A DNA stretch of 64,000 nt from Bacteroidales bacterium (GTDB lineage Bacteria > Bacteroidota > Bacteroidia > Bacteroidales > ML635J-15). How positions within the stretch are numbered: the first letter of the stretch is position 1; every line of letters starts with the position of its first letter. The notes under the pieces were generated by a model. It was not told the origin of the DNA. It worked only from the letters and a program-made list of their open reading frames with translations, and ran no database searches. This document shows, piece by piece, positions 18,401 through 58,185 of the stretch. A program made the translations under genes and the position numbers. The stretch spans positions 7,864-71,863 of the forward strand of contig JAFZLK010000052.1 in assembly GCA_017551515.1 (NCBI GenBank), in the 5' to 3' direction.

Positions 18401-18771
18401 GGGTAAGTAACGATAACAAATCCTTTGCGAGTGGCGTTGAGGCGCGAAAGCACTTCGGTCTGCATCACGATGTTGGACTTGTTTTCCTTCATATACTCGA
18501 TAGAACGGCGGAATGCACTTGGGTAGAACATTACCGATTCGTCGCCTAGTATGCTCACAAGGTCGTCGTACGAATACGATGCGCTTTCCTTGTCGGGAAG
18601 TAGTACGCAGATTGTCCCGCCTGTACGGGCGAATGTTGCTGCCACAGCAAACGACTTTGCCGAACCTGCAAGTCCTTTGAGCAACAACTTTTTAGGTTCG
18701 TCTTTTGTCAGCAAGTCCGACAGCAAGTCGAAGTTGGCATTTCGCGAAATTCTTTCAAGCAGGGATTTCAT
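15409..18771 (-). CDS. mfd: Transcription-repair coupling factor Mfd
   Basis: 1,120 aa. It has a UvrB-like N-terminus, a CarD-like domain, Walker A (GDVGFGKTE), a DEEQ box (VVDEEQKFG) and a C-terminal TRG region. Confidence 0.95.
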   Translation of the reverse strand: MKSLLERISRNANFDLLSDLLTKDEPKKLLLKGLAGSAKSFAVAATFARTGGTICVLLPDKESASYSYDDLVSILGDESVMFYPSAFRRSIEYMKENKSNIVMQTEVLSRLNATRKGFVIVTYPEAVMEKVIRTRELTRNTLNISTGDNLSMEKLIDMLNDWNFSRDDFVFEPGSFAVRGSLIDVFSYGAEKPYRIDFDDDIIEKIREFDPETQSSTDKLRKIRIIPNIYDKQTVEDRISFFEFMNRDFSLWIDSPDYVTDSIEKNYKLAETRYAEISEKEILDEETYIINPKSNLIDRKQFEAEANSRTVVEMSSRSFFSATNEIQFATEPQPAFSKQFDLLISNLKQNAENGFDTYILSTNEKQLQRLRDIFTDKGENPDFKGIGASLHEGFVDSDTKTCVYTDHQIFERYHRYTTKSISKPNALTIQDLKTLNPGDYIVHVDNGIGRFVGLQKINHNGRIQEVVTLSYGENDLLYVNIHSLHRISKYRDKDGEPPVIHRLGSGHWKRLKERTKKNIKDIARDLILLYAKRREQKGYAFSPDSYMQVELESSFMYEDTPDQSKTNDLIKADMESEVPMDRLVCGDVGFGKTELAIRAAFKAVVDGKQVAVLVPTTILALQHYQTFSERLKNFPVTVSYISRLKSAKEIRETLADLKSGKIDIIIGTHKLVGKSVEFKDLGLLVVDEEQKFGVSVKEKIKQLKVNIDTLTLTATPIPRTLQFSLMGARDLSVITTPPPNRQPIATELHAFNNDTIRNAIYYEVGRNGQVFFVHNRIQNIYEVQNQIARICPEVKTVVAHGQMGGEELEKIILDFMRGDYDVLISTAIVENGVDIPNANTIIINNANNFGLSDLHQLRGRVGRSNRKAFCYLLTPPLDLLTPDARRRLKAIEEFCELGSGINIALQDLDIRGAGNILGSEQSGFIADIGFETYNKILNEAIDELKETEFHDVFKDEENASKPVVRDCIMETDLDLMIPDYYVSSTSERIKLYRQMDELKDMQELEKFRDMLVDRFGKIPDETEKMFDMVKLRWTAVRLGFQKIAIKNGVFLGYFPQDQKSEYYSSQLFISILQFAQNNPRNLTVKQHNERLIMRLEGISNLSQIVDFMTRMEKEVTSPNS

Positions 18772-25569: not shown

Positions 25570-26634
25570 ATGAGATTTTGGAATAAAGTCCTACTTGTGA
25601 TTGCATGCCTCTGTGCCACAACGACATTTGCGCAGATGCCCAATGACTATTACAATTCCACTCGCGACCTTTGCGGGGAGGAGCTGAGGCAAAAGCTATA
25701 CACCATCATTTCTTCACACACAGCGGTAAGTTACAATGAACTTTGGTCTGCTTATCATCAGACCGACCTTCGCGACAATGGTAAAATATGGGACATATAC
25801 TCCGACTGCGACTTTACATACTCAACCGACCAGTGCGGAAGCTACAGCCGTGAATGTGACTGTTATAACCGCGAACATTCGGTGCCGCAAAGCTGGTTTG
25901 GCGAAGCATCTCCAATGAAAACCGACCTTTTCCATGTGTATCCAACCGACGGTTGGGTAAACAATAAGCGAGGAAATCTGCCACTTGGCGAAGTTTCAAA
26001 TCCTACATATACATCTGGCAACGGTAGCAAGGTAGGTCCATGCTCATATTCAGGTTACACAGGTACGGTTTTCGAACCTGTTGACGAATACAAAGGCGAC
26101 CTCGCGCGTACCTATTTCTATATGAGCGTATGCTACAAAGACAAGAATCTCGGGCAGGATTCAGGATCGATGTTCGAGGGAAGCCAACTGAAACCTTGGG
26201 CGTTGCGTATGCTTATCGAATGGCACTATGCCGACCCTGTGTCGCAAAAAGAAATAGACCGCAATAATGCTGTTTATGCAATCCAACGCAACCGTAATCC
26301 TTTCATCGACTGTCCATACTTTGTTGATGCCATCTGGAACGATCATTGCGATTTCGAATCGTGCTTAAGTCCGCAGGTAGATGTGGAGTCGGAGGATAAT
26401 TCTCCAAAATTCTTTATAGCGCCAAATCCTACAAATGGTATAGTTGAAATATCTTCAGACAGAACAATGACATCTGTGTCGATTTTCAATATTCTTGGTG
26501 AAAAAACTTTATTTTGTAACATAGAAACTAATTTTGCAACGATAAATTTGGAACAGTTGGAGAATGGAATGTACTTTGTGCGCATCGAGTTTTCCGATGA
26601 TAGTTCTGTAACAACAAAGATTATAAAGTATTAG
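25570..26634 (+). CDS. Secreted endonuclease I family nuclease with T9SS type-A CTD
   Basis: It has a signal peptide and the endonuclease-I landmarks YNREHSVPQSWF and NRNPFID. The C-terminus FFIAPNPTNGIVEI..ILGEK..NGMYFVRIEF fits a type-A CTD. Confidence 0.8.
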   Translation: MRFWNKVLLVIACLCATTTFAQMPNDYYNSTRDLCGEELRQKLYTIISSHTAVSYNELWSAYHQTDLRDNGKIWDIYSDCDFTYSTDQCGSYSRECDCYNREHSVPQSWFGEASPMKTDLFHVYPTDGWVNNKRGNLPLGEVSNPTYTSGNGSKVGPCSYSGYTGTVFEPVDEYKGDLARTYFYMSVCYKDKNLGQDSGSMFEGSQLKPWALRMLIEWHYADPVSQKEIDRNNAVYAIQRNRNPFIDCPYFVDAIWNDHCDFESCLSPQVDVESEDNSPKFFIAPNPTNGIVEISSDRTMTSVSIFNILGEKTLFCNIETNFATINLEQLENGMYFVRIEFSDDSSVTTKIIKY

Positions 26635-30870: not shown

Positions 30871-31125
30871 TTACTTTACTTCTGCTACGGTGAACTCGTA
30901 CGATTCGATTATCGGGTTTACGAGAACCTTGCTGCAGAATTCATCTATCTTCTTGCTTGCCTCTGCTTCGGATGCTGCTTCTATTTCAACATCTATGTGC
31001 TTGCCAATGCGGACATTGCGAAGAGTTTCGAATCCAGTCTTAACTGCGCTGTTCAATACAGCCTTTCCCTGTGGGTCCAACAATGCCTTAAGCGGCATAA
31101 CATTGATTTGAGCGTAAAATTTCAT
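30871..31125 (-). CDS. purS: Phosphoribosylformylglycinamidine synthase subunit PurS
   Basis: 84 aa. The sequence V.PLKALLDPQGKAV...G....VR.GK is typical of PurS. Confidence 0.85.
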   Translation of the reverse strand: MKFYAQINVMPLKALLDPQGKAVLNSAVKTGFETLRNVRIGKHIDVEIEAASEAEASKKIDEFCSKVLVNPIIESYEFTVAEVK

Positions 31126-31137
31126 TGTTATATTTTT

Positions 31138-31869
31138 TTAGTTTCTTGTTGAGACGCAAGGCCTTGCGTCTTTACTATTTATTATATTTCTGATTATCGA
31201 TAATATTACGTAAAAAATAATCGTGAATGCCAATCCGAGAACACCGAACAAGCATACAAAGGCAATCAGCGATGCGACAAGTATCAATTGCCAGATTATT
31301 GCCTTAATTTTGAACGATTTGATTTTCAGCGAGAGCAACCGAAGGTTCACGACCATCATTATGCAAACAAAAGCTACGATAGCGATAACGGCAGCTTGTG
31401 ATGTAAGTGCTTGTGCCAAAGTTGATTCGCTAGTTTTGCAATAGTAGCAAACCGAAATTACAAATAATGCCGATGCAGGAGTTGGCAGTCCTTTGAATTC
31501 GGTTGTCTGTTCGGGGTCGATGTTGAATTTTGCAAGTCTAAGACCAGAAAAAACGGCAATCAGCAAGACGAAAAGTGCAACATAGTGCGAAAAAAGTCCG
31601 TTTGTCACGGCAAATTCGTACATTATGACTGATGGTGCAACGCCAAAACTTATTAGGTCAGAAAGCGAGTCCATCTGCTTGCCGAATTCCGATACGGAGT
31701 GTAGCAATCTTGCCACAAAACCATCGCAGAAATCGAATACGGCAGCCATTAGTATAAGCACCACGGCAAGCTTTGTCTCGCCTTGCAGGGCAAGCACCGA
31801 TGCGCACACTCCGCAGACCATGTTCATCGAAGTTACAAACGATGGAATTGCCGCTTTTATCTTTTTCAT
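31138..31869 (-). CDS. pssA: CDP-diacylglycerol-serine O-phosphatidyltransferase
   Basis: It has the CDP-alcohol phosphatidyltransferase motif DFCDGFVARL...G...DSLSDLISFG and is multi-TM. Confidence 0.85.
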   Translation of the reverse strand: MKKIKAAIPSFVTSMNMVCGVCASVLALQGETKLAVVLILMAAVFDFCDGFVARLLHSVSEFGKQMDSLSDLISFGVAPSVIMYEFAVTNGLFSHYVALFVLLIAVFSGLRLAKFNIDPEQTTEFKGLPTPASALFVISVCYYCKTSESTLAQALTSQAAVIAIVAFVCIMMVVNLRLLSLKIKSFKIKAIIWQLILVASLIAFVCLFGVLGLAFTIIFYVILSIIRNIINSKDARPCVSTRN

Positions 31870-31938: not shown

Positions 31939-33039
31939 ATGAAAACGACTGCAAAATTAGCATTATTTGTGTTATTGGCAACCGCTGTAAATTTTTTAAA
32001 TGCACAGGGTGTGTCGAAATACAGCAACGAGTTCCTGTCGATAGGCGTTGGCGCAAGGGCTTTGGGCATGGGAACGTCGGTGATTTCCTCCACCAACGAC
32101 ATTTCTGCAACATATTGGAACCCAGCCTCGCTTATAAACCTTGACAAGCAAATAGAAATAGGTGCAATGCACTCCGAATATTTTGCCGGCATTTCAAAAT
32201 ACGACTATGTAGGTGCTGGTTATAAGATTGACGACAAATCGGCTGTGGGACTTTCGATGGTGCGCTTCGGAGTAGATGATATTCCCAACACACTGAACCT
32301 TATAGATGCCAACGGAAACATAAACTACGACAACATTACCTCTTTTTCTATAGCCGACTATGCATTCATGGCTTCCTATTCGCGTAAACTTCCCGTTGAG
32401 GGACTTAGCGTTGGTGGAAATGTGAAGATTATCTACCGCAATGTTGGCGAGTTTGCACATGCTGTCGGCTTCGGACTTGATTTCGCTGCAAAATACGACT
32501 ACAAGGCATGGCGTTTCGGTGCAGTTCTTCGTGATGGAATTGGAACTTTCAACGCATGGAACTACAACCGCGAGTTACTCGAAGAAGTTTTCACCGAAAC
32601 TGGCAACGAAATTCCTGTTAATGGCGTTGAAGTTACCGTTCCTCGCCTAATGCTTGGCGCTGGTTATTTGTTTACGATAAAGGAAAAGTTCACTATTTAT
32701 CCCGAAATCGACCTTGCAATGACTTTCGATGGCAAGCGTAGCACTCTAATCCGTAGCAAGGCATTGAGCATTGACCCGACTTTCGGACTTGAACTCGGGT
32801 ATGGCGACTTGGTTTTCCTGCGTTGCGGATTCAACAATTTCCAGACGGTTCCGGACTTTGATGGCAAGAAAACTTTTTCGTGGCAACCTAACCTCGGCAT
32901 CGGCGTAAAATTCTACGGAGTACGAATAGACTATGCTTTCACCGATGTCGGAAACCAGAGCATTGCTTTGTATTCGCATGTTTTTTCGCTTAGCTATTGC
33001 TTCAACATAAAGAAAAAGGAATCGCACTCCAGATTGTAA
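31939..33039 (+). CDS. PorV/PorQ-family outer-membrane beta-barrel protein
   Basis: It has a signal peptide (LLATAVNFLNAQ) and a strong family motif, SNEFLSIGVGARALGMGTSVISSTNDISATYWNPASL. Its stop lies 3 nt before the ATG of the C25 gene. Confidence 0.7.
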   Translation: MKTTAKLALFVLLATAVNFLNAQGVSKYSNEFLSIGVGARALGMGTSVISSTNDISATYWNPASLINLDKQIEIGAMHSEYFAGISKYDYVGAGYKIDDKSAVGLSMVRFGVDDIPNTLNLIDANGNINYDNITSFSIADYAFMASYSRKLPVEGLSVGGNVKIIYRNVGEFAHAVGFGLDFAAKYDYKAWRFGAVLRDGIGTFNAWNYNRELLEEVFTETGNEIPVNGVEVTVPRLMLGAGYLFTIKEKFTIYPEIDLAMTFDGKRSTLIRSKALSIDPTFGLELGYGDLVFLRCGFNNFQTVPDFDGKKTFSWQPNLGIGVKFYGVRIDYAFTDVGNQSIALYSHVFSLSYCFNIKKKESHSRL

Positions 33040-33042
33040 ACC

Positions 33043-36000
33043 ATGAGCTGCTTCAAAATCAGATACCTATTGCTTTTTTTCATCGCAATAATTTTGTCGA
33101 TGAGGCTTGGTGCGCAGGAAAATTCATGGATAAATTATGACCAGCAATATTTTAAGATTCAAGTAGTTAAAACTGGAATGTACAGGGTTTATGCTTCGGA
33201 ACTTGTTTCGTCCGATGTGCCGATTAACCTGATAAATGCCAATCATATACAATTATTCCACAATGGCGAGGAGCAATACATTTATGTGTCGGGAACAAAC
33301 AGCGACGGAACGCTTGCTAACAATGGATATATTGAGTTTTACGGAGAAAAGAACAACGGTCACGATGAATACGACTTCTATAATTCGCGCGAGAGCATGA
33401 TAAATCCGGAAGTCAGCTTGTACAACGACACTGCTGCATACTTTCTTACATGGAATTTTCATACAGGCAATCGCCGAATGGTAGAATCGGGTGATACAGA
33501 TTTTGATACTCATTATCCAAATAGGCAGGATTACTGCATAAGGCACAAACGGGCGAACTATACAGGAAAGTACTACGCTGGCGACACACGAAGCTTGTTT
33601 ACTCAGTCGGAAGGCTGGCTGGATGCAACTACAATAACCGCTGGCGGAATCAGCAAAACAGTCGCAACGGCTGGAGTTTTCTCTAATGGTCCAGATACCG
33701 AGATAGAAATCGCTGTGGGCGGAATCAATGCAAGCAACTCGTCGTATTACAATGCCCTGCACCAATTGACTGTGACAATGCAAAGCACTACTTGGGTAGA
33801 TACGACTTTCAACGGATACGGTTTTGTACGATCAAGATTCTTGGTGCCAAGTTCGGTTATGCCAGCATCTTCAGTACTGACGTTCAAGTCAAGTGCCAGC
33901 GAAACCGACAAAACCGTCGTTTCATACATTGACATCAAGTATCCTCATAACTGGAATTTCGAGGGCGCAACAGCATTTGGATTTAACCTTCCTGTCAATA
34001 GTTCCGATAGTAAGGATTTCTTGGAAATCAGTAACTTTTCATCTGGAAGCGGAACTTTTTTGTACGACCTTACCAACCATGAGCGCATAACTCCAACAAT
34101 TGGCAACACGATAAAAGCCCTTGTCGGAAATACCGCAGGCGAAAGGCAGATGATTCTTGTTGGTTCCGATGGTTATCAGTCGGTGGCAGGGATAAAGAAG
34201 GTGTCTGCCGACAACAAGTTTATTGATTATATTTCGCAAAAGCCCAATGCCGACTATATAATTGTCACCAATAGCAAATACCTTTCTGTTTGCAACGAAT
34301 ATGCATCATACAGGAACATGACTGGTTATAAGGCGTTGGTAGTGGATGTCGTCCAGCTTTACGATCAGTATGCGTACGGAGTGAACAGGAATCAGGCTGC
34401 AATTAGGCGATTCTGCAAGGCAATGTATGAGTCGTCTCCTTCGGAAAAGTACTTGTTCCTTGTAGGTAGGTCGCTAGAGGCTAGCCAGTACAAGGCAAAT
34501 GCTTCGAATGCCACTTATACGACTGTCCCATCGGCAGGACAACCTGCTAGTGACCAACTATTTACTGTGGGGTTGTGCGGAACAACAGTCGAGCCTTTGT
34601 ATTCTACAGGAAGGTTGGCGGTGACATCGGCAACGCAAGTTTCAACCTACTTGAATAAGGTGAGAACCTACGAATCGGCTTTGCCTGAACTTTGGAACAA
34701 GGAAGTGATGCATTTCGGTGGAGGAAACAACATTTCGGAACAAAGTCGAATCGAAAATTACCTCAATTCGTACAGGGAAATTATTGAGGACACTCTTTTC
34801 GGAGGCCATGTTCATACCTTTCTGAAAAATTCATCTGCTGCCGTGACAACCACAAACAGCGATTCAATCGACAATCTTATAAATAGCGGAATTTCGATGA
34901 TGCTGTTTTTCGGACATGGTTCGTCAACAACTTTCGACCACGAAATAAAGGCCCCTGAGTTTTATACCAACGATGGCAAATTTCCGTTTATGATTGGAAA
35001 TTCATGTTATGTCGGAGCTATACATTCCACAACCAACACTCTGAGTGACATTTGGATTAGGTCGCAGAAAGGTGCAATTGGATTCATGTCGTCGATGGAT
35101 CAGGGAAATACGAGTTACCTGAACACATACACGCTCGAATTGTACAAGAACTTTTCGTATAGCAATTACAGTCGTCCTATTGGAATGCAGATTAAGAACA
35201 CTCTCAAGAATGTGCTTACCGACAGTTGGAGTATTAGCACCGATATTACAAGTTATCAGATAACTTTGCAAGGCGATCCTGCAATAGTAATCGGTCCGAA
35301 AGAAAAGCCAGACCTGATGATTGACAATTCATCACTAAGCCTTTCGCCACAGGAAATTACAACAGTACTTGATAGTTTTGATGTTAATGTTGATATAAGG
35401 AATCTCGGGCGGGCTGTTTCGGATAATTTTCACTTGTATGTTGAGCGTACTCTTCCCGATGGCAACGAAACTCACTACGAAGCCATAGTAGACGGATGTT
35501 TTTATCGTAAGTCCGTAAGCGTAAGAATTCCTACTAATATCATTGACGGAACGGGAATGAATAGTGTCCGCGTTTTTGTTGACGGCATGAATGAAGTCGA
35601 TGAGATTTCGGAAACGAACAATTACGCGACGATTGACTTTATGATAAGGTCAAGCGATGTATTTCCAATATATCCGTACGAATATGCTATTTATCCTTAC
35701 GATACAGTATCGCTTGTGGCATCAACCGGTGACCCTTTCCTCGGCACTGTTAACTATAGTTTCCAGATTGATACTACCGATAGGTTCAACAGTCCGCTGA
35801 TGCGAGAAACTACAGTCAGTAGCGAAGGGGGAATCGTTAGATGGAAAGTTCCGTTTGTACTGACGGAAAATACTGTCTATTATTGGCGAGTATCGGCGGC
35901 GTCCAATGAAGGTCAGTATTCGTGGAAAGAATCATCGTTCATATACATCGATGGTGAGGAAGGCTGGTCGCAGGCGCACTACTATCAGTTCAAGAAGGAC

Positions 36001-37986
36001 AAATTCAATTTTATCGAATACAACAGAAACACACAGGTTTTCACTTATTCCCAGGGGCAAAGACAACTTAATTGTCACAATCGCGCTAATGTAGGCACCA
36101 GTACATTCAATGTAGTGCGGTGGACCATCGATAATACCACAGGTCAGCAGTCGGGGGGCTACGGAAACTGCAACACAGGTTCGGCAATGGCAGTCGCCGT
36201 AATTGACCCAATGACATTGCTTGCATGGCAGTCGAATAAACATAATTACGGACATAGGAACTATCCTAAATGTTTTTCTTCATCTGTCCCTCAGCCGTAT
36301 TTTACATTCGACATAACAGCAACTGCTTTGAACGGGATGGTAAATCTTCTGAATGATGTTCCCAACGGATATTACATACTTATATACTCTTGGCGAACAG
36401 TTGCATTCTCATCGTTACCGGAAGCTTTGAAGCAAACAATGGAAAGTCTTGGTTCCGTGCAGATACGAACAGTTCCCAACAACAAGGCATACATTTTCTG
36501 CACATGCAAAGGCGATCCATCAATACACAGGGAAATTTTTGGCGATGATATTGATATGGATCCGCTAAACCTTGTCTCAGACTTTACATATGGCTACATG
36601 ACAAGTACGGTAGTCGGTCCGTCCAAGCAATGGCGGTCGCTACAATGGCAGCACGAGAGCGAAGATGGTGACGAATTGAAACTTGAGGTATATGGCATTC
36701 GTCCGTCTGGCGAGGAGGAACTTGTAATCGACAGCATTGGGGCAGACTTTCCCTTGCTTTCTGCACTTGGAAATCTCATAGACTATCGCACATATCCGAA
36801 CTTGCGGTTGAACCTCTTCACTCGCGATACGGTAAACCGAACTCCGCCTCAGCTGAAGAAATGGCAACTTAGATTCGATGGTGTTCCCGAAACAGCCATA
36901 GACCCCAAACTCGGATATTTCTTCCATTCGGATACAATCGAGCGTGGCGACGAACTTGTCTTTGCTATTTCAACGCACAATGTAAGCAATAGCGACATGG
37001 ACAGTCTGGTGGTAAAATACTGGATTCGCGACAGCCACAACAACGAAACTCCAATTGGCATACGCACTTTGCGTCCGCATCCTGCACACGACATCCTAAG
37101 CGATACTATACGCTATTCAACGCTCGGACTTTCGGGTCTTAATAGCATCTGGGTGGAATTCAATCCTATAAACGAAGCAACAGGAACTTATTATCAGCCA
37201 GAGCAATACCATTACAACAACATAGCATCAAAGTATTTCTACATAACCAACGATAAAACCAATCCTTTGCTCGAAGTAAGTTTCGATGGAAAATTCATCA
37301 TGAATGGTGAAATCGTTTCAGCAAAGCCAGAGATTCTGATAACATTGAAGGATGAAAACAAATATCTTGCACTAAACGACACCTCTTTGTTCGAGATGCA
37401 TCTTACAAATCTTACTACAGGACAAGCAAAGAGAATAAGTTTTGGTATTCAGGAAAATCCTTTGGAAACAGTGGAGTGGGTTCCAGCCGAGTTGCCCGAC
37501 AACAGCTGCAAGATAATATATCGTCCTATATTCACCGAGGATGGTACATATAGGCTTCAGGTGCAGGCGAAGGATGCAACTGGAAACTTGTCGGGAGATA
37601 ATTCGTATATTATTGATTTCTGCATTATTACAAAATCGACGATTACAAATCTGATTAACTATCCGAATCCTTTCAGTTCGCAGACAAGGTTCGTATTTGA
37701 ACTTACTGGCAGTGAAATTCCCGATGAACTCGAAATAGAAATCTTTACGATTACGGGCAAGATTGTCAAGCGCATATATATGGAAGAACTAGGTCCTATT
37801 ACTATTGGTCGCAATATTACTGAATATGCTTGGGATGGTTGCGATACATACGGAGACAGGCTGGCAAATGGGGTTTACTTCTATACCGTTAAGGCGAAGA
37901 TAAACGGAGAGGAAATCGAGAAGCGCGATGTCGGTACCGACAAGTATTTCAAGCGCGAAGTCGGAAAGATGTATTTATTAAGGTAG
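33043..37986 (+). CDS. 1,647-aa peptidase C25 family protein, PorU-like (putative T9SS sortase paralogue)
   Basis: It has a signal peptide and a gingipain-like His/Cys dyad spacing: FFGHGSS (His codon 34915-34917) ...FPFMIGNSC (Cys codon 35005-35007). A CARDB-like module is present (PDLMID..NLGRA..ETNNYATIDF). The C-terminus LINYPNPFSSQTRFVFEL..ITGKIVKRI..WDG..NGVYFYTVKA fits a T9SS/FlgD-Ig-like CTD. Confidence 0.75.
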   Translation: MSCFKIRYLLLFFIAIILSMRLGAQENSWINYDQQYFKIQVVKTGMYRVYASELVSSDVPINLINANHIQLFHNGEEQYIYVSGTNSDGTLANNGYIEFYGEKNNGHDEYDFYNSRESMINPEVSLYNDTAAYFLTWNFHTGNRRMVESGDTDFDTHYPNRQDYCIRHKRANYTGKYYAGDTRSLFTQSEGWLDATTITAGGISKTVATAGVFSNGPDTEIEIAVGGINASNSSYYNALHQLTVTMQSTTWVDTTFNGYGFVRSRFLVPSSVMPASSVLTFKSSASETDKTVVSYIDIKYPHNWNFEGATAFGFNLPVNSSDSKDFLEISNFSSGSGTFLYDLTNHERITPTIGNTIKALVGNTAGERQMILVGSDGYQSVAGIKKVSADNKFIDYISQKPNADYIIVTNSKYLSVCNEYASYRNMTGYKALVVDVVQLYDQYAYGVNRNQAAIRRFCKAMYESSPSEKYLFLVGRSLEASQYKANASNATYTTVPSAGQPASDQLFTVGLCGTTVEPLYSTGRLAVTSATQVSTYLNKVRTYESALPELWNKEVMHFGGGNNISEQSRIENYLNSYREIIEDTLFGGHVHTFLKNSSAAVTTTNSDSIDNLINSGISMMLFFGHGSSTTFDHEIKAPEFYTNDGKFPFMIGNSCYVGAIHSTTNTLSDIWIRSQKGAIGFMSSMDQGNTSYLNTYTLELYKNFSYSNYSRPIGMQIKNTLKNVLTDSWSISTDITSYQITLQGDPAIVIGPKEKPDLMIDNSSLSLSPQEITTVLDSFDVNVDIRNLGRAVSDNFHLYVERTLPDGNETHYEAIVDGCFYRKSVSVRIPTNIIDGTGMNSVRVFVDGMNEVDEISETNNYATIDFMIRSSDVFPIYPYEYAIYPYDTVSLVASTGDPFLGTVNYSFQIDTTDRFNSPLMRETTVSSEGGIVRWKVPFVLTENTVYYWRVSAASNEGQYSWKESSFIYIDGEEGWSQAHYYQFKKDKFNFIEYNRNTQVFTYSQGQRQLNCHNRANVGTSTFNVVRWTIDNTTGQQSGGYGNCNTGSAMAVAVIDPMTLLAWQSNKHNYGHRNYPKCFSSSVPQPYFTFDITATALNGMVNLLNDVPNGYYILIYSWRTVAFSSLPEALKQTMESLGSVQIRTVPNNKAYIFCTCKGDPSIHREIFGDDIDMDPLNLVSDFTYGYMTSTVVGPSKQWRSLQWQHESEDGDELKLEVYGIRPSGEEELVIDSIGADFPLLSALGNLIDYRTYPNLRLNLFTRDTVNRTPPQLKKWQLRFDGVPETAIDPKLGYFFHSDTIERGDELVFAISTHNVSNSDMDSLVVKYWIRDSHNNETPIGIRTLRPHPAHDILSDTIRYSTLGLSGLNSIWVEFNPINEATGTYYQPEQYHYNNIASKYFYITNDKTNPLLEVSFDGKFIMNGEIVSAKPEILITLKDENKYLALNDTSLFEMHLTNLTTGQAKRISFGIQENPLETVEWVPAELPDNSCKIIYRPIFTEDGTYRLQVQAKDATGNLSGDNSYIIDFCIITKSTITNLINYPNPFSSQTRFVFELTGSEIPDELEIEIFTITGKIVKRIYMEELGPITIGRNITEYAWDGCDTYGDRLANGVYFYTVKAKINGEEIEKRDVGTDKYFKREVGKMYLLR

Positions 37987-38079: not shown

Positions 38080-41000
38080 TTATTCCTTTACGAATTTTCG
38101 TTGGACAACAACCGTACCTTGAGTTTGTTGAAGTGAGCTTGTAGAAGATGTGTGGATACGAACAACATATACACCGTTTGGTAAATATCTGACATTGCAT
38201 ATTGCATTGTCGTTGTTGACATCCAAGCTATAAACAACCTGACCAATAATGTTTACAATTTCGACAGATGAGATTATTTCCGATGAGGTGATGTTCAGAA
38301 TATCATTTGCTGGGTTTGGATATATGTCAATGTTGTTTTCTGTTTCGTCTATTCCTGTTACGATTGCGGTTACAGTTTCTGATGCTTCAGATGTGCTGCC
38401 GTTTGCACAGTTTGTAATTATATAATATGCGTTGCCTTCATGTCCTTGCAGGTCGATTGTCGAAGAGTTCGTCTCTGTTGAAATCCAGTTGCCATTGCGG
38501 TAGATTTCGTAGGAAGTTGCATTTTCGGCAGCATTCCACGACAATACCACTCCGTACGGTTCAACTTGTGCTGTAAGGTTGGTGACAGTATTGCAAATCG
38601 CTTCTGCTTCGGCAGTTACTGTTTCTGAAGCATTTGAAGATCCTCCGTTTTCACAGTTGGTGATGATATAATAGGAATCGCCTACTTGTCCTTGCATGTC
38701 GATTGATGAGGTGTTGGTTTCGGTTGCGATTCTTTCACCGTTGCGGTAAACTTCGTAGGAAATTGCATTCTCGGCAGCTGTCCACGAAATCAAGTTTCCG
38801 TATGATTCAACCGAAACTTCTAGGTCTGAAATCGTATTACATTGTTCTGTTACAGGCGAAACAACCGTTTCTGATGGTTCCGAAAAATTGTTCGGCCCAC
38901 AATTGGTAACAACATAGTATTCAATGTTTTGACCACCTTCAATATCAAAGTAGATTGTTTCTGTATTAGTAGAAACAAGAATACCATTACGGTAAACCGA
39001 GTATGAATCTGCATTTTCGGCTGCTGTCCACGAAAGGAGATTTCCATCTGTGTTGTAAGCATTTGGTTCAATTGTAAGATTTGTAACACTATAACATATT
39101 GGAACTATAGCTATTTCATTGAAAGATGCATAAATGCTATGTCCATTTTCTGTTACATTGCTGAATGTATAGTTTTCAACAGCACCGACGTTTTGTCCAT
39201 CAACGGTAACATCGGCAATTTCGTAGCCTTCATTTGCTTCTATTGCGAAAGTTTTGCTTTCGCCGCAGTTAACCTCTATATCCCCACTGGGTGTTATAGT
39301 GCCACCATTTCCAGCGCTTGCAGTAATGATATAGGTAATTGGGTTGAATGTTACATTTATGTTTTGTGGCTCGGTTACATTTTCTATTGTGTAGGAGTTG
39401 TTTGCATCAAGCGTTACTGCTGTTCCGTTAACTGTTACACTACCGATTTCGTAGCAGTTGTCGGGAGTAACGGTGAAAGTGAAGTCATTTCCTTCTGAAA
39501 TTGTTTGTGCGCCAGTTGGAGAAACTGAGCCGCCTTCAGGGTCAGTGTTTACAACAATCACAATTTCTCCTGCTGGAATTACTTCGAATGTTGCAGATAT
39601 GCTGTGATTTGCATCAACATTTGTGAATGAGAACGAACTTTGCGAACCAACACTTTGTCCATCAACAAGTACATCGGAAATAATATAGCCCTCGTTTGCT
39701 GCAATAGCAAAGGTCTTATTTTCTCCGCAGTTTACGTTAACATTTCCAATAGGATTAATTGTTCCGCCATTTCCAGCATTTGCAGTTATTGTGTAGCTGA
39801 TTCGGTTGAATGTTGCATTAATTGTTTGTTCGGTGGTTACATTCTGTATTGTATATGAATTGTTCGCATTGAGTATTACTTCATTCCCGTTGACGGTAAC
39901 AATTCCTATTTCGTAGCAATCGTCGGGGATGACGGTAAATGTGTAGTTGCCATTGTAATTCACAGAGTTTGCACCAGTTATGCTTCCGTTTTCGGTGTCG
40001 GCAATGCTGATGTTTATTTCTGGCATTGCAATGTTTGCACAATCCGATGCGCTACAACCGTTGGTGTCGGTTGCGGTGACGCAATAGTTGTCGTCTGCTG
40101 TTACATTTATGCTTTGTGTTTGTTCGTTGGTTGACCAAATGTAATTATAGTTGCCAACGCCAGCGGTTGCATTTGCGGTAAGTGTGTTGCCATTTGTTGT
40201 TATCGCGACTGATGGAACAGGATTTATTGTTACAACAACAGAACCCTCGACTTCGCACGCACCATTGCTTGCTGTCACTGTGTATGTTCCGCTTTGTGAT
40301 ACTGTTATTGCCTGAGTATGCTGACCGTTGCTCCAGTTGTAGCTGTTAAAACCGCTTCCCGCATCCAATGTTGCAGTACCACCGCATTGGGTTATCGGTT
40401 CTCCAAGGTTGATGCTTCCCGATTCTATTACAGTTGCGGTTACTGCTGTACGTTCGCTTGTACAGATGCTTCCTGTCTTTATCACCCAGTTGTAGAAGGT
40501 ATAGTAGTAGGTGGAATATGATGAGGTGGCATATTGCCCTGTTATACTGATTACATTGTCAACAGTGTATGGGAAACTCGGTGTCTGTCTGTATGTGTTT
40601 TGTACGTTGGTGTAGATATTATATGTTCCAGCCGACAATTCTGCGTTTAATGTCAATGTGTTAAGACCGGATGTCAAATTGTGTTCTTGCGAATACACTT
40701 GTTGATTTGAACTGTTTGATATGGTTATTGTCTTGCTTTGGTTGTTCTGCGAGCAATATACATCTATCGAAACCAATGTAAGGTTTTGTGATACAGTAAA
40801 TGTAAGGCCTCTGTTTTGTCCATTATTAGTATATGCAGTTGCAGCCGTGTTGTCGGTGACACCTACATTGTAGTATTGTTCCGAACCTTGCTGTGCTTCG
40901 ACGTATAATGTTGTTGTTTCTGCGAAGTTTGCTGAATATGATTCGCCTGTTCCAAGTTCGGTTCCGTCGGTTGCAGAATCAAACCAGTGGAGAGTGCCGC

Positions 41001-43662
41001 TTCCTGTTGCCGAAAGGGTGATGTTGGCGTTTCTGCATCCGTTGGCTGGTGTTACCGAAGCAATCTCTGGAACGGAAACTTCTATTTGCTGGGTAGCAGT
41101 GCTATTGCCGATGGCATTTGTAGCGGTAAGTGTGATTGTGTATGTTCCGTTTGCAGTGTAGGTGTGTGTGGGTTCTGCTTCGGTAGAGGTTGTTCCATCC
41201 CCAAATGCCCAAAGGTAGGAGGTCGCGTGTTCAGATTCGTTGGTAATGCTTATGTTTCTTGTGCAGGATTCTGCGATAACTGCTGAAAATTCTGCTACAG
41301 GTTCGGGTTGGTAGCAACTTATTTCGGCTTCCCAACCAGTATTTACTGTTGAGGTGTTTGAGTAAAAGTAAATGGTAAGAGCACCATCGCTGTTTGTGGC
41401 TGTTACAACACCGTTTGTCCCTATCGAAGATGGGTTGGTTCCGCAATATTGTCCGATTTGCGTTGCCGATGTGCTTGTGCCGTCGTATATTGTGATATAG
41501 TTGTTGCAAGTTGTTGAACCCCAGTTTGTTGTCTGCTGTAATCCAAGTTGTGTGAATGTAAGTCTTAAATATGCGCCATCGGTGCTTGGATAGATTGTCT
41601 GCGTAACTCTGGCGTTGTTACCATAATTGCCATCGCTTCCTGGGTCTCTGTATGTGCCTGAACATGCGTAAATTGTTCCATCGCTCATGTTGATTACCGA
41701 AGTAACTTCAATGTATGCAGTCTTTGTTTCGGTATTGGAACCAAAGGCATTAGAAGCGACCAATGTAACTGAGTATAATCCTGATTCGTTGTATGTTACG
41801 GTTGGGTTCTGTTCATTTGATGTTGCTGGAGTTCCTCCTTCAAAAGTCCATTGCCACGATGTAGGCATATTTGTTGAAAGGTCGGTGAAAGTTACAGGAC
41901 TACTTATAGATACAGATGTTTCGGATGCTGAAAAGTCGGCTACTGGTGGTATTGCCTCATGAACTATGATTTGTTCTGTGGTGGATGTCGAGCATCCGTT
42001 TTCGCTTACAATAGAAAGTGTGACATTGTATGAGCCGGGAGTGTTGTAAGTTACGGTTGGATTTGCGGATGTGCTAGTTGCTGGCGAACCGCCCTCGAAA
42101 GTCCATGATGTCGAATTATTGCATCCAGTAGTATTGATAAATTGTATGCTTCTGCCTTCGTATGCTTCTGCAGGATTTGTAGTAAATGTCGGTTCTGGAC
42201 ATAGGCTTACATCCAAGCGTGTACTTGCCATATTCTGGGTTGTTACCGTTAATGTTTTTGGCAAATAGCCTTCCTTAGAGAAGGTTACGCTGTATGTGCC
42301 TGCATAAATCGGGCGTTGGTAGTCGCCGACTGGTGTTTTGGTGTAAACTTCCGAATTGTCGGTGTCGTGGTTGTTGACGAAAACCTTTACGCTGTCCAAA
42401 GGCTGGTTGGTACAAGCATCTGTAACAATGCCACGGAAACCGTATAAAGCCTGTTCTGTATAATTGAGCATTGCCTGCTTGTAGTATCCCCAGTATGCGT
42501 TAAGGTATTCTGTCCCTAGTTCCTTGGTGGTAGTGAATTCTACGGTTGTTTCCTTGATGTTCTTGTAGTAGTTCATATAATCTTGACGACCACCATCAAT
42601 AGAATACCATTCTGAGCCTTTTGTTACACCGTTTGATCCTGATACATTTGAAGGACCTGTGAATCTGCTGGAGTTGATTGCGTGTACAGTATCGACAAAC
42701 ATCCAAGAAATGTATTCCCACCAATCGTCATCTGCATTTGGACGGTCAACATGTGTCCATCCGTCCTCGTCCCACGGATAGTTCATGCATTCGTCTCCGC
42801 CGTGGCAGTTTGCCGACATTATGAAGTGGTGCTTGTTGGCGAAAGTGTACATCATCGTGATTTCTGGTTCGTCGGGATATTCTGCTGTATGATTAGGTCC
42901 ATCGGTAACGAACTTGAAGTTACGGTTAAGGTCAACTCCGTGTTGGTTGTATCTTCTTGCACTTTGTATGCTTGTGCCGTTGCTCGACTGGTAGAATGTA
43001 CCATCGGGGTTGGTGTTGGGCGATATGCAAATTTCCATGTTGTTTACAAGGTTGGTGACTTGCGGGTCGGTGCCGTAGTTTGTAAGCAGATGGTCGATAA
43101 GACGGATTAGGAAGTACCATCCCGAAGTTTCGTCACCATGCATAGTACTGCTCCACCAGAATTCAGGTTCGTCCTCGTCAACGCCAACATTATCGGAGAT
43201 TGTAATATTGACAATTGGTCGCTCATTTACAGAAAAACCTATTGTGTCGAGTTTGCATATTGATGGATAATTGGTTGCGTAGTTCTGCATCATTTGCAGA
43301 TATACAGCGTAGGTGGGGTAACGGTCCCAGTTTGCCATCTGTGCAACTGTGGTAGCCATGTTGAGTGCACGAGTCCGATTATAGTACTCATATACTGGCG
43401 CATATTCAATACCGTATGACTTGAATTGCTCATACTCTCTTCGGTTGGCGTATGCTACAACCATCGAATCATTAATCTTGTCGATTGAAATTATGCGCCC
43501 GAGTTCGCGTACTAGTTCACGATTGTTGTTATGTGGAAACCTAAACACTATTTCTCCACGATTTTCAAGAGTCTGCTCTATGAATTGAAGGTCGGATTTC
43601 GTCTGCCCTAAAACTGCCGATACTACTAGTATCCATGCAATTGCAATGATGACTTTTTTCAT
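38080..43662 (-). CDS. 1,860-aa T9SS-secreted M14 zinc carboxypeptidase with long PKD/CUB-like/Ig/Fn3-like extension
   Basis: It has a signal peptide and the M14 zinc-binding context WWSSTMHGDETSG. It also has a carboxypeptidase-regulatory-like domain, PKD modules, a CUB-like module and internal duplications. The C-terminus IDIYPNPANDILNI..IIGQVVYS..NGVYVVRIH fits a type-A CTD. Confidence 0.8.
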   Translation of the reverse strand: MKKVIIAIAWILVVSAVLGQTKSDLQFIEQTLENRGEIVFRFPHNNNRELVRELGRIISIDKINDSMVVAYANRREYEQFKSYGIEYAPVYEYYNRTRALNMATTVAQMANWDRYPTYAVYLQMMQNYATNYPSICKLDTIGFSVNERPIVNITISDNVGVDEDEPEFWWSSTMHGDETSGWYFLIRLIDHLLTNYGTDPQVTNLVNNMEICISPNTNPDGTFYQSSNGTSIQSARRYNQHGVDLNRNFKFVTDGPNHTAEYPDEPEITMMYTFANKHHFIMSANCHGGDECMNYPWDEDGWTHVDRPNADDDWWEYISWMFVDTVHAINSSRFTGPSNVSGSNGVTKGSEWYSIDGGRQDYMNYYKNIKETTVEFTTTKELGTEYLNAYWGYYKQAMLNYTEQALYGFRGIVTDACTNQPLDSVKVFVNNHDTDNSEVYTKTPVGDYQRPIYAGTYSVTFSKEGYLPKTLTVTTQNMASTRLDVSLCPEPTFTTNPAEAYEGRSIQFINTTGCNNSTSWTFEGGSPATSTSANPTVTYNTPGSYNVTLSIVSENGCSTSTTEQIIVHEAIPPVADFSASETSVSISSPVTFTDLSTNMPTSWQWTFEGGTPATSNEQNPTVTYNESGLYSVTLVASNAFGSNTETKTAYIEVTSVINMSDGTIYACSGTYRDPGSDGNYGNNARVTQTIYPSTDGAYLRLTFTQLGLQQTTNWGSTTCNNYITIYDGTSTSATQIGQYCGTNPSSIGTNGVVTATNSDGALTIYFYSNTSTVNTGWEAEISCYQPEPVAEFSAVIAESCTRNISITNESEHATSYLWAFGDGTTSTEAEPTHTYTANGTYTITLTATNAIGNSTATQQIEVSVPEIASVTPANGCRNANITLSATGSGTLHWFDSATDGTELGTGESYSANFAETTTLYVEAQQGSEQYYNVGVTDNTAATAYTNNGQNRGLTFTVSQNLTLVSIDVYCSQNNQSKTITISNSSNQQVYSQEHNLTSGLNTLTLNAELSAGTYNIYTNVQNTYRQTPSFPYTVDNVISITGQYATSSYSTYYYTFYNWVIKTGSICTSERTAVTATVIESGSINLGEPITQCGGTATLDAGSGFNSYNWSNGQHTQAITVSQSGTYTVTASNGACEVEGSVVVTINPVPSVAITTNGNTLTANATAGVGNYNYIWSTNEQTQSINVTADDNYCVTATDTNGCSASDCANIAMPEINISIADTENGSITGANSVNYNGNYTFTVIPDDCYEIGIVTVNGNEVILNANNSYTIQNVTTEQTINATFNRISYTITANAGNGGTINPIGNVNVNCGENKTFAIAANEGYIISDVLVDGQSVGSQSSFSFTNVDANHSISATFEVIPAGEIVIVVNTDPEGGSVSPTGAQTISEGNDFTFTVTPDNCYEIGSVTVNGTAVTLDANNSYTIENVTEPQNINVTFNPITYIITASAGNGGTITPSGDIEVNCGESKTFAIEANEGYEIADVTVDGQNVGAVENYTFSNVTENGHSIYASFNEIAIVPICYSVTNLTIEPNAYNTDGNLLSWTAAENADSYSVYRNGILVSTNTETIYFDIEGGQNIEYYVVTNCGPNNFSEPSETVVSPVTEQCNTISDLEVSVESYGNLISWTAAENAISYEVYRNGERIATETNTSSIDMQGQVGDSYYIITNCENGGSSNASETVTAEAEAICNTVTNLTAQVEPYGVVLSWNAAENATSYEIYRNGNWISTETNSSTIDLQGHEGNAYYIITNCANGSTSEASETVTAIVTGIDETENNIDIYPNPANDILNITSSEIISSVEIVNIIGQVVYSLDVNNDNAICNVRYLPNGVYVVRIHTSSTSSLQQTQGTVVVQRKFVKE
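38330..39110 (-). repeat. Three tandem 246-bp (82-codon) Fn3-like coding repeats
   Basis: The anchor encoding SWTAAENA recurs at 38519, 38765 and 39011, giving an exact 246-nt period. Confidence 0.75.
39120..40050 (-). repeat. Internal 462-bp (154-codon) tandem duplication (two Ig/B-repeat-like modules per unit)
   Basis: The CYEIG codon string lies at 39443-39456 and 39905-39918, exactly 462 nt apart. The protein units are about 60-70% identical by eye. Confidence 0.75.
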
Positions 43663-48264: not shown

Positions 48265-48672
48265 TTATGAGTTTTTCTCGTTTGTCAGTGCAATTATTTT
48301 CTCGACAAGTGTTTCTACCTTTGGAAAAAGTTGTTCGACATCTTCTTTCGTTGCATCAATAAAGTCATCATAATCGCTACCTTGTCTAAATGCAAAGACC
48401 AGACCGAACAAATGTCCGTCTTCTTTAGTAAGAATATCAGTCTTTACATAATATTGATTAACTAATGAAAGGGCTCCTTTGTGTGTGTTTACTGGATGCG
48501 AATCTTTTGTTAGTAATGCCGAAACTGCATAATATAGTGCGTAGTACATTCTGTTTGCTATTATGCTCCAAACTTCCAATGGCATTACCTTTTTTATCTC
48601 ATCCAATGCCATACGAGCTTTTTCTGTCCGATATGCTACTATTGCATTGCGTTCTTCCTGTGATAGACTCAT
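48265..48672 (-). CDS. HEPN-domain protein (putative toxin of an MNT-HEPN pair)
   Basis: The ATG at 48672 (MSLSQEERNAI..) is preferred over the upstream start in the track. It is all-helical and has an FRQGSDYDD (R-x4-DY) HEPN-type motif. It shows a 4-nt ATGA start/stop overlap with the upstream nucleotidyltransferase gene. Confidence 0.7.
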   Translation of the reverse strand: MSLSQEERNAIVAYRTEKARMALDEIKKVMPLEVWSIIANRMYYALYYAVSALLTKDSHPVNTHKGALSLVNQYYVKTDILTKEDGHLFGLVFAFRQGSDYDDFIDATKEDVEQLFPKVETLVEKIIALTNEKNS

Positions 48673-49007
48673 AATTGTATTCCTTCCTCTTTTACATTGT
48701 GCTTGAATAATGATGGTGGGGCAGAATTCCATTGGTCAATGGTATAAACGAGCGTATTTATCTCTTCACCTATGTCAAAACCTTTGTCCCATAATTCGCA
48801 AGCAATTTCATATCTTTCGATGTGAGGCATAGGTGGCTTGTTAAGCAGGACAATTATATCCCAATCGGAATCCTCGTGATTGTCGCCACGTGCGCGTGAA
48901 CCGTACAGAATTATTTGCGCATCGGGTTCTTTGTCACGAATCGTAGAACGAATCATGTCCAGTACCATATCTCTGCTTTGCCGTTCCATTATATGTTTAT
49001 TAAGCAT
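48669..49007 (-). CDS. Minimal nucleotidyltransferase (MNT) domain protein (putative antitoxin)
   Basis: It has the Pol-beta-type NTase motif YGSRARGD...DSDWDIIV. Confidence 0.8.
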   Translation of the reverse strand: MLNKHIMERQSRDMVLDMIRSTIRDKEPDAQIILYGSRARGDNHEDSDWDIIVLLNKPPMPHIERYEIACELWDKGFDIGEEINTLVYTIDQWNSAPPSLFKHNVKEEGIQL

Positions 49008-52318: not shown

Positions 52319-53548
52319 CTACCTCTCTACAAAAACCAAATAATACGCATCGTATGGGTCACCAACTCCAACGCTCGGCTGGTATAGAAATACCGCAACC
52401 TTCTTCGATGTCTGCTCATAGTACGACATAAACTCTTCCTGTCCGGACAATGTCTGCCAGATATAGCCCAAATCATTATCAGATTCGTCAACATCTTGGA
52501 CATAATGTCCATCAACATCTATGTAAGAAATTCTGTCTCTTGGGAAAGACAAACTATATTTCATCGTATATTCAGGCACGTATGTGTCTACATTTCCACC
52601 TTTTACGAAAGTGTCTGGAAAATTAAGGGCACCGCATCCGGCCCATATTATTGAACCATCCATAAGAAGATTATCGGTGTCATGATAGTAAAATTTAATG
52701 TAACCGAAATCGTGAGGAGACATGTAGTCTGCAAGGAAAGGAATTTCGTTTCCTTCGTTCTGCTTGTTTGTAACATTCATAGAGTAAAAACCTCCGTATT
52801 CAAACGTCATGTAATCGACCTTGGCAATAAGAATGTCCTTGTCCAAATATTCATCGGTGAGGTTTACGGTAGGGACTTCTGGAAGCGGATTGTTCACTCG
52901 TTCGTTGATAATCTGCATACATACCGACGGATTCCATTGTCCATAACTCAAATGCAAACTATATTTGTATGCTTGACTATCATTTGCTGAAAACGAAAAA
53001 CTAATATTATCAGAAGATGGGTCAACTGATTCCAATGCCTCCAAGATTTGTTCGGGTGTATCAACATACTGATATCCATTATTACCAATTTTCATAGAAT
53101 AACTTTCCCTGACCAGCAATGGATATGAACTGGATTGCAATATCTCTAAAAGCCATTTCTTAAAGATTGCCGACAATGTATCAATGTCGCTGCTTTCCAA
53201 TTTCATTTCTACATTCGGAACCCTATCGTCATATCCGAAATGAACAAACAAATATTTTGATATGCTGTCAACCCTTGTGTCTGTATATTTCGCACTAAGA
53301 TTGTTGTTGTATTCACATTCCTCGTATCCGTTTGTCGTCAAATATTCATTATATGCAGTAACTTCCATGCCAATCAACGACTTCAAAAACACAAAGTCTC
53401 CACCATCGGTTTCGTAATCCTGCAAGATTGTTCTTGAACCGCCAATTGGGTTTTCTTCAGGATCAAATTTAATGCGTTCGCATGAAGCAAAGGAAAACGC
53501 AAATGCGATTCCAATGAATATTACCGAAAGTTTCAAGTTAGTTTTCAT
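52319..53548 (-). CDS. Hypothetical lipoprotein (409 aa), no family recognised
   Basis: It has a lipobox (AFSFASC) and good coding character. It sits 79 nt downstream of the type-B CTD gene array. Confidence 0.5.
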   Translation of the reverse strand: MKTNLKLSVIFIGIAFAFSFASCERIKFDPEENPIGGSRTILQDYETDGGDFVFLKSLIGMEVTAYNEYLTTNGYEECEYNNNLSAKYTDTRVDSISKYLFVHFGYDDRVPNVEMKLESSDIDTLSAIFKKWLLEILQSSSYPLLVRESYSMKIGNNGYQYVDTPEQILEALESVDPSSDNISFSFSANDSQAYKYSLHLSYGQWNPSVCMQIINERVNNPLPEVPTVNLTDEYLDKDILIAKVDYMTFEYGGFYSMNVTNKQNEGNEIPFLADYMSPHDFGYIKFYYHDTDNLLMDGSIIWAGCGALNFPDTFVKGGNVDTYVPEYTMKYSLSFPRDRISYIDVDGHYVQDVDESDNDLGYIWQTLSGQEEFMSYYEQTSKKVAVFLYQPSVGVGDPYDAYYLVFVER

Positions 53549-53574
53549 ACTGAATTTTTTTAATGTTTATGCCA

Positions 53575-53582
53575 CAAAGATA
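53575..53582 (-). promoter_or_regulatory. -7 box (TATCTTTG on minus strand) for the lipoprotein gene
   Basis: It lies 26 nt upstream of the ATG at 53548. Confidence 0.4.
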
Positions 53583-53627
53583 ATTAATTAAATTTATGTA
53601 CAAAAAAATCACATTAAATATACAAAA

Positions 53628-58082: not shown

Positions 58083-58151
58083 CCCTATATTTTTATATTC
58101 GTTTTCGTATTTTTACCAAAATAATTCATTTTTATGCCAATTATTTCATTT

Positions 58152-58180: not shown

Positions 58181-58185
58181 AAATT

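Follow-up and report, generated by a model that had tools for sequence, protein, structure and literature searches.

A PorV2/PorU2 gene pair in a Bacteroidales bacterium, encoding a putative second type IX sortase and its barrel partner

[quoted passage not shown] The locus described here raises the question of whether a PorV-like barrel gene directly followed by a large family C25 peptidase gene is the housekeeping pair of its organism or a separate module, and what such a module might do. It lies within a 64,000-nucleotide stretch of a Bacteroidales contig, referred to below as the window.

The barrel gene (porV2, 31939..33039, + strand) encodes a 366-aa outer-membrane beta-barrel protein of the PorV/PorQ family with the motif SIGVGARALGMGTSV...ATYWNPASL, and the peptidase gene (porU2, 33043..37986, + strand) a cysteine peptidase of family C25 with 1,647 aa, which is a putative second sortase of the T9SS. 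The junction reads TAA-acc-ATG, a gap of 3 nt, and in all these respects the locus is as the preliminary description had it. GenBank labels the two products 'hypothetical protein' and 'PorV/PorQ family protein'. A scan for sigma-70 promoters and for terminators, which does not cover Bacteroidota promoters, gave no more matches than expected by chance.

Profile-HMM searches assigned both proteins to a class. PorU2 scored 693.7 bits (cut-off 450) against NF052324, 'putative type IX secretion system sortase PorU2', with residues 8-860 aligned to positions 4-879 of 879; this model spans the N-terminal ~880 residues of the protein. PorV2 scored 490.9 bits (cut-off 325) against NF052325 (PorVQ2), 'putative type IX sorting system protein PorV2', with residues 12-355 aligned to positions 8-353 of 354. 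The canonical models gave scores below their cut-offs, i.e. 191.3 bits compared to 420 for PorU (NF033707), 48.5 compared to 250 for PorV (NF033710) and 66.9 compared to 220 for PorQ (NF033711), and PorV2 falls inside the PorV/PorQ subfamily model (122.9 bits, cut-off 90). Since the E-values for the pair are 1.8e-147 and 3.7e-208, chance is of no concern for its identity. The locus is thus an orthologue of the PorV2/PorU2 pair, a family which has been catalogued before and is experimentally unstudied, and nothing sets this instance apart. As the family already carries an NCBIfam name, the locus adds one member and is not a discovery. In the literature searched, the names 'PorU2' and 'PorV2' were found in no paper, apparent matches being superscript citations, and neither anything on the function of the proteins, nor experiments on any family member, nor relevant work on PorU/PorV paralogues was found.

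The single 4,633,577-bp chromosome of Fluviicola taffensis DSM 16823 (CP002542.1) contains both a PorU2/PorV2 pair (PorU2, AEA44444.1) and a PorU/PorV pair (PorU, AEA44535.1, Fluta_2550; PorV, AEA44536.1, Fluta_2551), and PorV2/PorU2 can therefore be regarded as an ancient paralogue of PorV/PorU. The models discriminate in both directions: the true PorU, Fluta_2550, scores 1,216.4 bits against its own model and 117 against that of PorU2, and the true PorV, Fluta_2551, scores 404.9 bits on the PorV model. The proposal that the pair is a paralogous, uncharacterised module and not the housekeeping pair is borne out by these results, and the F. taffensis canonical genes lie in the order porU, then porV, that the preliminary description gave as canonical.

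PorU2 is predicted to begin with a Sec signal peptide (33043..33114, + strand; MSCFKIRYLLLFFIAIILSMRLGA, followed by QENSW), with Gln at position +1, as read from the sequence. In the family consensus the N-terminus is likewise hydrophobic and leads into Q…NEWINY, and the shorter, 1,628-aa start annotated in GenBank would remove the predicted signal peptide. For PorV2 a signal peptide of residues 1-22, with cleavage between …NFLNA and QG, was predicted in the same manner. The peptidase C25 catalytic domain of PorU2 (34255..35289, + strand, residues 405-749) matches PF01364 over model positions 1-373 of 374 (183.3 bits, cut-off 23, E=1.1e-53), and when the profile was compared with the PDB it aligned to residues 405-787 of PorU (6ZA2) and 91-371 of gingipain R (RgpB, 1CVR). 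The catalytic dyad consists of His625 in FFGHGSS (34915..34917, + strand) and Cys655 in FPFMIGNSC (35005..35007, + strand). In the alignments His625 falls on gingipain R His211 and on the PorU GH, and Cys655 on gingipain R Cys244 and on the Cys in the 'ITATC' of PorU. Both residues are present without exception in 24 homologues with identities down to 37 %, and recomputing the codon positions returned those first given.

The catalytic domain is followed by a CARDB-type beta-sandwich (35305..35631, + strand, residues 755-863; PF07705, 32.2 bits, cut-off 22.7) and by a PorU2-specific extension (35650..37632, + strand, residues 870-1530), a chain of beta-sandwiches with a FAM3/ILEI-like alpha/beta module (36295..36555, + strand, residues ~1085-1171; ILEI 29 bits, FAM3B 2YOP E=3e-4). 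An AlphaFold2 model of the extension had a pLDDT of 82.6. With the C-terminal half of PorU2, Foldseek returned generic multi-Ig matches, including PorU, at low TM-scores, and a new catalytic fold was not found. The protein ends in a PorU-like Ig domain and C-terminal domain (CTD) (37252..37983, + strand, residues 1404-1647), which is 29 % identical to residues 1075-1288 of F. taffensis PorU (79 bits, BLASTP) and aligns to residues 1039-1139 of PorU 6ZA2 in the profile comparison. Within this block FlgD_ig matches residues 1545-1619 (28.8 bits, cut-off 27), so that the CARDB and FlgD-Ig modules reported earlier are both above their Pfam cut-offs; the type-A CTD model TIGR04183 gave 22.8 bits against a cut-off of 23.

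The large size of the peptidase and the barrel-first gene order had been put forward as peculiar to this locus, but both are family norms. Full-length PorU2 homologues have 1,630-1,740 aa at ~100 % coverage, the extension is found at the equal position in 1,063 representative clusters (E<=1e-30), and the full-length architecture is kept across 30 % to 93 % identity, a length of ~1,650 aa with the C-terminal extension being normal in a family that is found in at least 534 species representatives and comprises more than 1,000 clusters of sequences. In 63 of the 68 informative loci, which come from four Bacteroidota orders (Bacteroidales, Flavobacteriales, Chitinophagales, Saprospiraceae), porV2 lies immediately upstream of porU2 on the same strand. 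The remaining five have no adjoining porV2, and the products of the downstream genes considered there as relocated barrels are a thioredoxin-like protein, one with a type-A CTD and one that is unrelated. No second C25 or PorV-family gene outside the PorU2/PorV2 slot was found in the loci examined, save for a marginal PorV-family match in one locus (L039, E=7e-4). Culturable carriers of porU2 include F. taffensis, Terrimonas ginsenosidimutans and Taibaiella koreensis, with which the function of PorU2 is experimentally accessible. The usual model organisms were not among the best-matching genomes, which may be why PorU2 has remained unstudied.

By analogy with the canonical system, PorU2 is probably a surface C25 peptidase or transpeptidase that is held by its own barrel and acts on T9SS cargo. 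Both proteins would be exported by the Sec pathway, PorU2 would then use the T9SS to cross the outer membrane and, like PorU, retain its CTD, and PorV2 would tether it at the cell surface, as in the PorV-PorU and PorQ-PorZ pairs. There PorU2 could cut the sorting CTDs off some T9SS cargo and may link the C-terminus formed in this way to an acceptor at the surface, with its lectin-like and Ig domains possibly recruiting the substrate or the acceptor. Analogy is the source of the proposed sortase (transpeptidase) chemistry and CTD retention, and equally of the proposed binding to PorV2 and choice of substrates, and the NCBI name is likewise 'putative'. A second catalytically intact and widespread PorU-like enzyme with its own barrel is a candidate for cargo-class-specific processing.

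The window also contains T9SS cargo genes. Type-A CTD matches were found in 8000..12721, 25570..26634 and 38080..43662 and a weaker one in 15..1361, and type-B matches in 53628..58082, 58186..62661 and 63122..63958, so that the count of five type-A-like and three type-B cargo genes made at the outset was about right. The scaffold as a whole has many T9SS cargo genes, together with PorP/SprF and PorE-like genes.

A different reading, which we consider unlikely, is that PorU2 is itself ordinary T9SS cargo, a large gingipain-like surface or secreted C25 protease serving protein degradation or adhesion, with PorV2 as a shuttle or anchor dedicated to it. Family C25 does include true proteases, and RgpB matches the family profile (E=8e-7). 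PorU2 also terminates in a type-A-like CTD, contains numerous modules (Ig-like, CARDB, lectin-like) of a kind typical of surface enzymes, and is adjoined by the gene of a large M14 peptidase cargo protein. That neighbour, however, is kept in only three loci, and the surroundings consist of housekeeping genes of the envelope (pssA, purS, lnt, lpxD) and not of nutrient-acquisition loci. Full-length phmmer of PorU2 against the PDB gave no match, PorU and RgpB being reached by the family profile alone; with this profile the best solved structure was PorU (E=1.8e-12) and not gingipain, and the match takes in the CTD as well as the C25 domain. The region preceding the C25 domain is PorU-like as well, residues 34-751 corresponding to positions 5-733 of the PorU model, and the protein is conserved over its full length in four orders. 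These observations speak against the cargo reading.

Beside the pair, pssA (31138..31869, - strand; CDP-diacylglycerol-serine O-phosphatidyltransferase, TIGR00473, 119 bits, cut-off 107) is divergent from porV2 and is followed by purS (30871..31125, - strand). The divergent pssA recurs in 28 loci of Bacteroidales and Flavobacteriales, the window included, and F. taffensis has the same arrangement of purS-pssA and porV2-porU2. It is a lead to a possible functional tie with porV2-porU2, and nothing relevant was found in the literature searched for a tie between the T9SS, C25 peptidases and phosphatidylserine synthase. The archaeosortase ArtA depends on PssA/PssD. In parallel, PorU2/PorV2 could ligate cargo to an amine-bearing lipid derived from phosphatidylethanolamine or phosphatidylserine instead of anionic LPS, an idea which we regard as doubtful at best. 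Besides the recurrent pssA, it is favoured by lnt (apolipoprotein N-acyltransferase), which in 10 loci is the next gene downstream and has the same orientation, and by a sub-threshold match of the pssA product to the 'protein sorting system archaetidylserine synthase' model. On the other hand, pssA and lnt are housekeeping genes, and the linkage to pssA is missing from Chitinophagales, where a TyrRS-like gene takes its place, and from most Bacteroidales loci. Similarly speculative, and put forward with little confidence, is the wider notion that PorU2/PorV2 forms a self-contained second attachment machine with an acceptor unlike that of PorU/PorV/PorQ/PorZ, in which the FAM3/ILEI and Ig extension would replace acceptor delivery by PorZ and a subset of cargo would be placed on an aminophospholipid-derived lipid. 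If true, this would explain both the recurrent divergent pssA and the downstream lnt.

It is highly improbable that the pair is simply the organism's own diverged and rearranged housekeeping PorU/PorV: the 81 kb of scaffold viewed contained no canonical porU-porV, but the scores are well under the canonical cut-offs and well over those of PorU2/PorV2, the window PorU2 aligns end to end with that of F. taffensis (793 bits) and only in patches with its PorU (79 bits), and F. taffensis has both pairs. The absence of a canonical pair from these 81 kb makes it possible that in this organism PorV2/PorU2 is a replacement rather than an addition. When the C25 fragment of P. gingivalis PorU was used as a query, the matches were for the most part incomplete PorUs belonging to other lineages, and not one could be traced to this MAG.

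Two candidates for a canonical pair were rejected. The ORFs 15409..18771 (1,120 aa) and 14121..15320 (399 aa) resemble porU-porV in size and order, but encode Mfd and an amidohydrolase. The second PorV-family gene noted at 1376..2527 does exist and belongs to the PorV_fam subfamily (144.9 bits), but its use as support for paralogy did not hold, as it fails the PorV, PorQ and PorV2 models and its partner is a non-C25 protein. This partner, in canonical order with the barrel, is a large protein of 1,375 aa without a C25 domain and with only a weak type-A CTD; its gene starts left of the window, and ORF 15..1361 is only its C-terminus. In genome annotation, porV2/porU2 genes should not be mistaken for housekeeping porU/porV.

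Outside its own NCBIfam families, the PorV2/PorU2 pair is closest to canonical PorU, PorV and PorQ and to gingipain R. Canonical PorU (P. gingivalis 6ZA2; Fluta_2550) and PorU2 have in common the N-terminal region, the C25 His/Cys dyad and the C-terminal Ig domain with the CTD (~230 residues of PorU2 being homologous), and each is encoded beside a PorV-family barrel gene. The similarity is nevertheless patchy (72-79 bits, BLASTP), PorU2 has ~500 additional residues (CARDB, beta-sandwiches, FAM3/ILEI-like module) after the C25 domain and before the C-terminal block, and the gene order is reversed, with the barrel gene first. PorV2 belongs to the same subfamily as canonical PorV and PorQ and shares their N-terminal motif region, whereas it fails both equivalog models and is slightly nearer PorQ than PorV by score; its similarity to F. 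johnsoniae PorV (6H3I chain F) is distant (E=2.9e-5) and restricted to the N-terminal half. With gingipain R (RgpB, 1CVR/4IEF), PorU2 shares the catalytic domain of family C25 and the equivalents of His211 and Cys244, but this likeness is weaker than that to PorU, whose similarity to PorU2 extends beyond the catalytic domain while that of gingipain does not.

The PorV-like barrel gene and the oversized C25 peptidase gene that the preliminary description had read from the raw sequence as a paralogous sortase/shuttle module belong to the PorV2 and PorU2 families, and that reading of the locus was correct. Both ORFs are on the forward strand precisely where they had been placed, porV2 at 31939..33039 (366 aa) and porU2 at 33043..37986 (1,647 aa), with a gap of 3 nt at the junction (TAA-acc-ATG), and the motifs quoted for them were found, including the codons of His625 (34915-34917) and Cys655 (35005-35007). 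NCBIfam release 20 holds curated equivalog models for precisely these two proteins. With 490.9 bits the 366-aa protein exceeded the cut-off of 325 set for NF052325, 'putative type IX sorting system protein PorV2', and it was below the cut-offs of PorV (48.5 vs. 250) and PorQ (66.9 vs. 220). The 1,647-aa protein reached 693.7 bits against a cut-off of 450 for NF052324, 'putative type IX secretion system sortase PorU2', and fell below that of canonical PorU (191.3 vs. 420). The models discriminate reciprocally: the PorU model gave genuine PorU (Fluta_2550 of Fluviicola taffensis) 1,216 bits and the PorU2 model 117, and for genuine PorV the PorV and PorV2 models gave 405 and 19 bits, respectively. 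Since NCBI already has named models of this family, the pair adds a new example to a kind that is known but experimentally uncharacterised. The names PorU2 and PorV2, or a second PorU, occurred in no paper of the literature searched.

In GenBank the proteins are labelled 'PorV/PorQ family protein' and 'hypothetical protein', and in public data exactly these proteins lie on a 178.8-kb metagenome scaffold of an uncultured Bacteroidales MAG. The GenBank PorU2 (MBR5983356.1, 1,628 aa) starts 19 codons downstream (33043..33102), which would strip the predicted signal peptide; the 1,647-aa start agrees with the N-terminus of the family and yields the 3-nt gap to porV2. Pfam domains in PorU2 were Peptidase_C25 (residues 405-749, E=1e-53), CARDB (755-863), an ILEI/FAM3-like segment (1088-1157) and FlgD_ig (1545-1619).

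F622-F623-G624-H625 and C655 were invariant among 24 aligned homologues with 37-84 % identity to the PorU2 query. The profile built from this alignment matched PorU of P. gingivalis (6ZA2) at E=1.8e-12 and gingipain R (1CVR/4IEF) at E=8e-7. In the profile alignment FFGH falls on YTGH of RgpB (His211, a position obtained by counting along the printed alignment) and YAGH of PorU, and NSC on DVAC of RgpB (Cys244) and TATC of PorU. Both residues thus align with the dyads of the two peptidases, and the objection that they might not correspond to the C25 dyad falls away.

In the P. gingivalis attachment complex PorU is held by PorV and PorZ by PorQ, and PorU cleaves the CTDs and transfers cargo to A-LPS. 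PorU2 has intact C25 catalytic residues and two PorU-like termini, its dedicated PorV/PorQ-family barrel gene is closely linked to it, with synteny kept across orders, and the surroundings are rich in T9SS genes, with type-A and type-B cargo and, just outside the window, PorP/SprF and PorE-like genes. By analogy, we consider it reasonably probable that PorU2 would be exported, retain its CTD, be anchored to the surface through PorV2 and process the CTDs of some cargo. An ordinary surface protease, for which the linked barrel would be a private anchor, seems an unlikely description of the same features.

Several neighbouring genes also have T9SS features. The start of the window (1..2527) and its left flank (L085:2194-11152) carry a third kind of unit of CTD protein and PorV/PorQ-family barrel, in the order 1,210-aa TonB-dependent-receptor-like gene, 1,375-aa protein and barrel. 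The 1,375-aa protein, of which ORF 15..1361 is only the C-terminus, had a weak type-A CTD as its sole family match. The 383-aa barrel (1376..2527) follows it after 14 nt and met the PorV_fam subfamily model only, being below the PorV, PorQ and PorV2 cut-offs. Convergent with porU2 lies a 1,860-aa M14 carboxypeptidase gene (38080..43662, reverse strand) with PKD/Ig repeats and a type-A CTD; homologues occurred in just three related loci, so it is outside the conserved module. A reverse-strand pair at 48265..49007, a nucleotidyltransferase (NTP_transf_2/Polbeta, 112 aa) and a HEPN protein (135 aa) by Pfam, has an arrangement typical of a toxin-antitoxin module. At the other end (52319..64000 and right flank L088:1666-9540) there are three tandem PKD-repeat proteins of ~1,485-1,491 aa with type-B CTDs (53628..58082, 58186..62661 and a third with its C-terminus at 63122..63958). 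A 409-aa DUF8347 gene (52319..53548) lies on one side of them, and the flank beyond the window has a PorP/SprF-family gene (176 bits) and a PorE-like TPR/OmpA gene.

With one genome scanned per GTDB species, relatives turned up in at least 534 species. Gene order was counted in the best 80 loci, which are spread over Bacteroidales, Salinivirgaceae, Rikenellaceae, Flavobacteriales/Crocinitomicaceae, Chitinophagales and Saprospiraceae. In 63 of them the gene directly upstream of porU2, on the same strand, codes for a PorV2 homologue (41-93 % identity); 12 of the others end at a contig edge and five truly lack PorV2 within 10 kb. The barrel-first order is real, but it is no peculiarity of this locus. 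In the five loci without PorV2 (L020, L039, L057, L061, L080) the immediate upstream genes are on the opposite strand, and L039 has a gene for a 483-aa type-A CTD protein downstream of porU2 on the same strand. Full-length PorV2-PorU2 loci were also seen in MAGs labelled Competibacteraceae (L038), Akkermansia (L044) and Verrucomicrobia (L054), and in the first two the neighbouring pssA is also of the Bacteroidota type. Mis-binning or mislabelling of these contigs is probable.

The pssA gene (31138..31869, reverse strand; TIGR00473, 119 bits vs. cut-off 107) is adjacent to and divergent from porV2 in 28 loci of Bacteroidales and Flavobacteriales, the window and 27 others. The full purS-pssA<>porV2-porU2 block is shared by this rumen-type Bacteroidales MAG (purS and pssA at 30871..31869, reverse strand) and F. 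taffensis (L091:3599-4749). In Chitinophagales a TyrRS-like gene, identified from its N-terminal sequence only, takes the pssA position, and in ten loci lnt lies downstream of porU2 on the same strand. The pssA and lnt neighbours might suggest a sortase whose acceptor is a lipid, which appears improbable; both are housekeeping envelope-lipid genes, and their adjacency may therefore be inherited synteny.

Both kinds of pair occur in one complete genome, that of F. taffensis DSM 16823, where PorU is AEA44535.1 (Fluta_2550) and PorV AEA44536.1 (Fluta_2551) (PMC7323717, supplement). By exact look-up, these and AEA44444.1 (1,732 aa, 709.8 bits on the PorU2 model) are on one 4,633,577-bp contig. In CP002542.1 the canonical order given in the preliminary description was seen, porU (1,294 aa) then porV (420 aa) with 60 nt between them and an adjoining PorP/SprF gene; the second locus is porV2 then porU2. 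F. taffensis PorU2 aligned end to end with the window PorU2 (793 bits, 30 % identity) and only patchily with the PorU of its own genome (72 bits), which makes the two modules ancient paralogues, coexisting in at least this genome. No canonical porU/porV was seen in the window and ~9 kb at each end, and coexistence in this MAG is what we infer. None of the 80 related loci had a second C25 gene. Given the model scores and this coexistence, a diverged housekeeping pair is very improbable. As annotation the instance is unsurprising, yet the gap in T9SS biology to which it points is real and can be tested, with F. taffensis, Terrimonas ginsenosidimutans and Taibaiella koreensis as culturable carriers.

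The large size of PorU2 is likewise real but not peculiar to the locus, since its best 120 homologues are almost all 1,630-1,730 aa at ~100 % coverage; 120 homologues of Fluviicola PorU2 show the same sizes and coverage. Residues 870-1,530 alone had 2,345 matches (1,063 at E<=1e-30) among 1.84 billion representatives. Among the matches listed the extension occupies ~870-1,560 of 1,600-1,740-aa proteins, and shorter matches look like contig-cut fragments. The length, extension and gene order once seen as odd are family norms. The AlphaFold2 model of residues 861-1,647 (pLDDT 82.6) predicts a chain of beta-sandwiches, one alpha/beta module, for which a sequence profile matched FAM3B (E=3e-4), and the CTD; the Foldseek matches were all generic multi-Ig proteins, PorU among them at ranks 4-5. 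Compared with PorU, PorU2 has ~500 additional residues after the C25 domain, whereas its last ~230 residues (Ig domain and CTD) are homologous to the last ~215 of PorU (29 % identity, BLASTP), and PorU2 is thus PorU-like at both ends.
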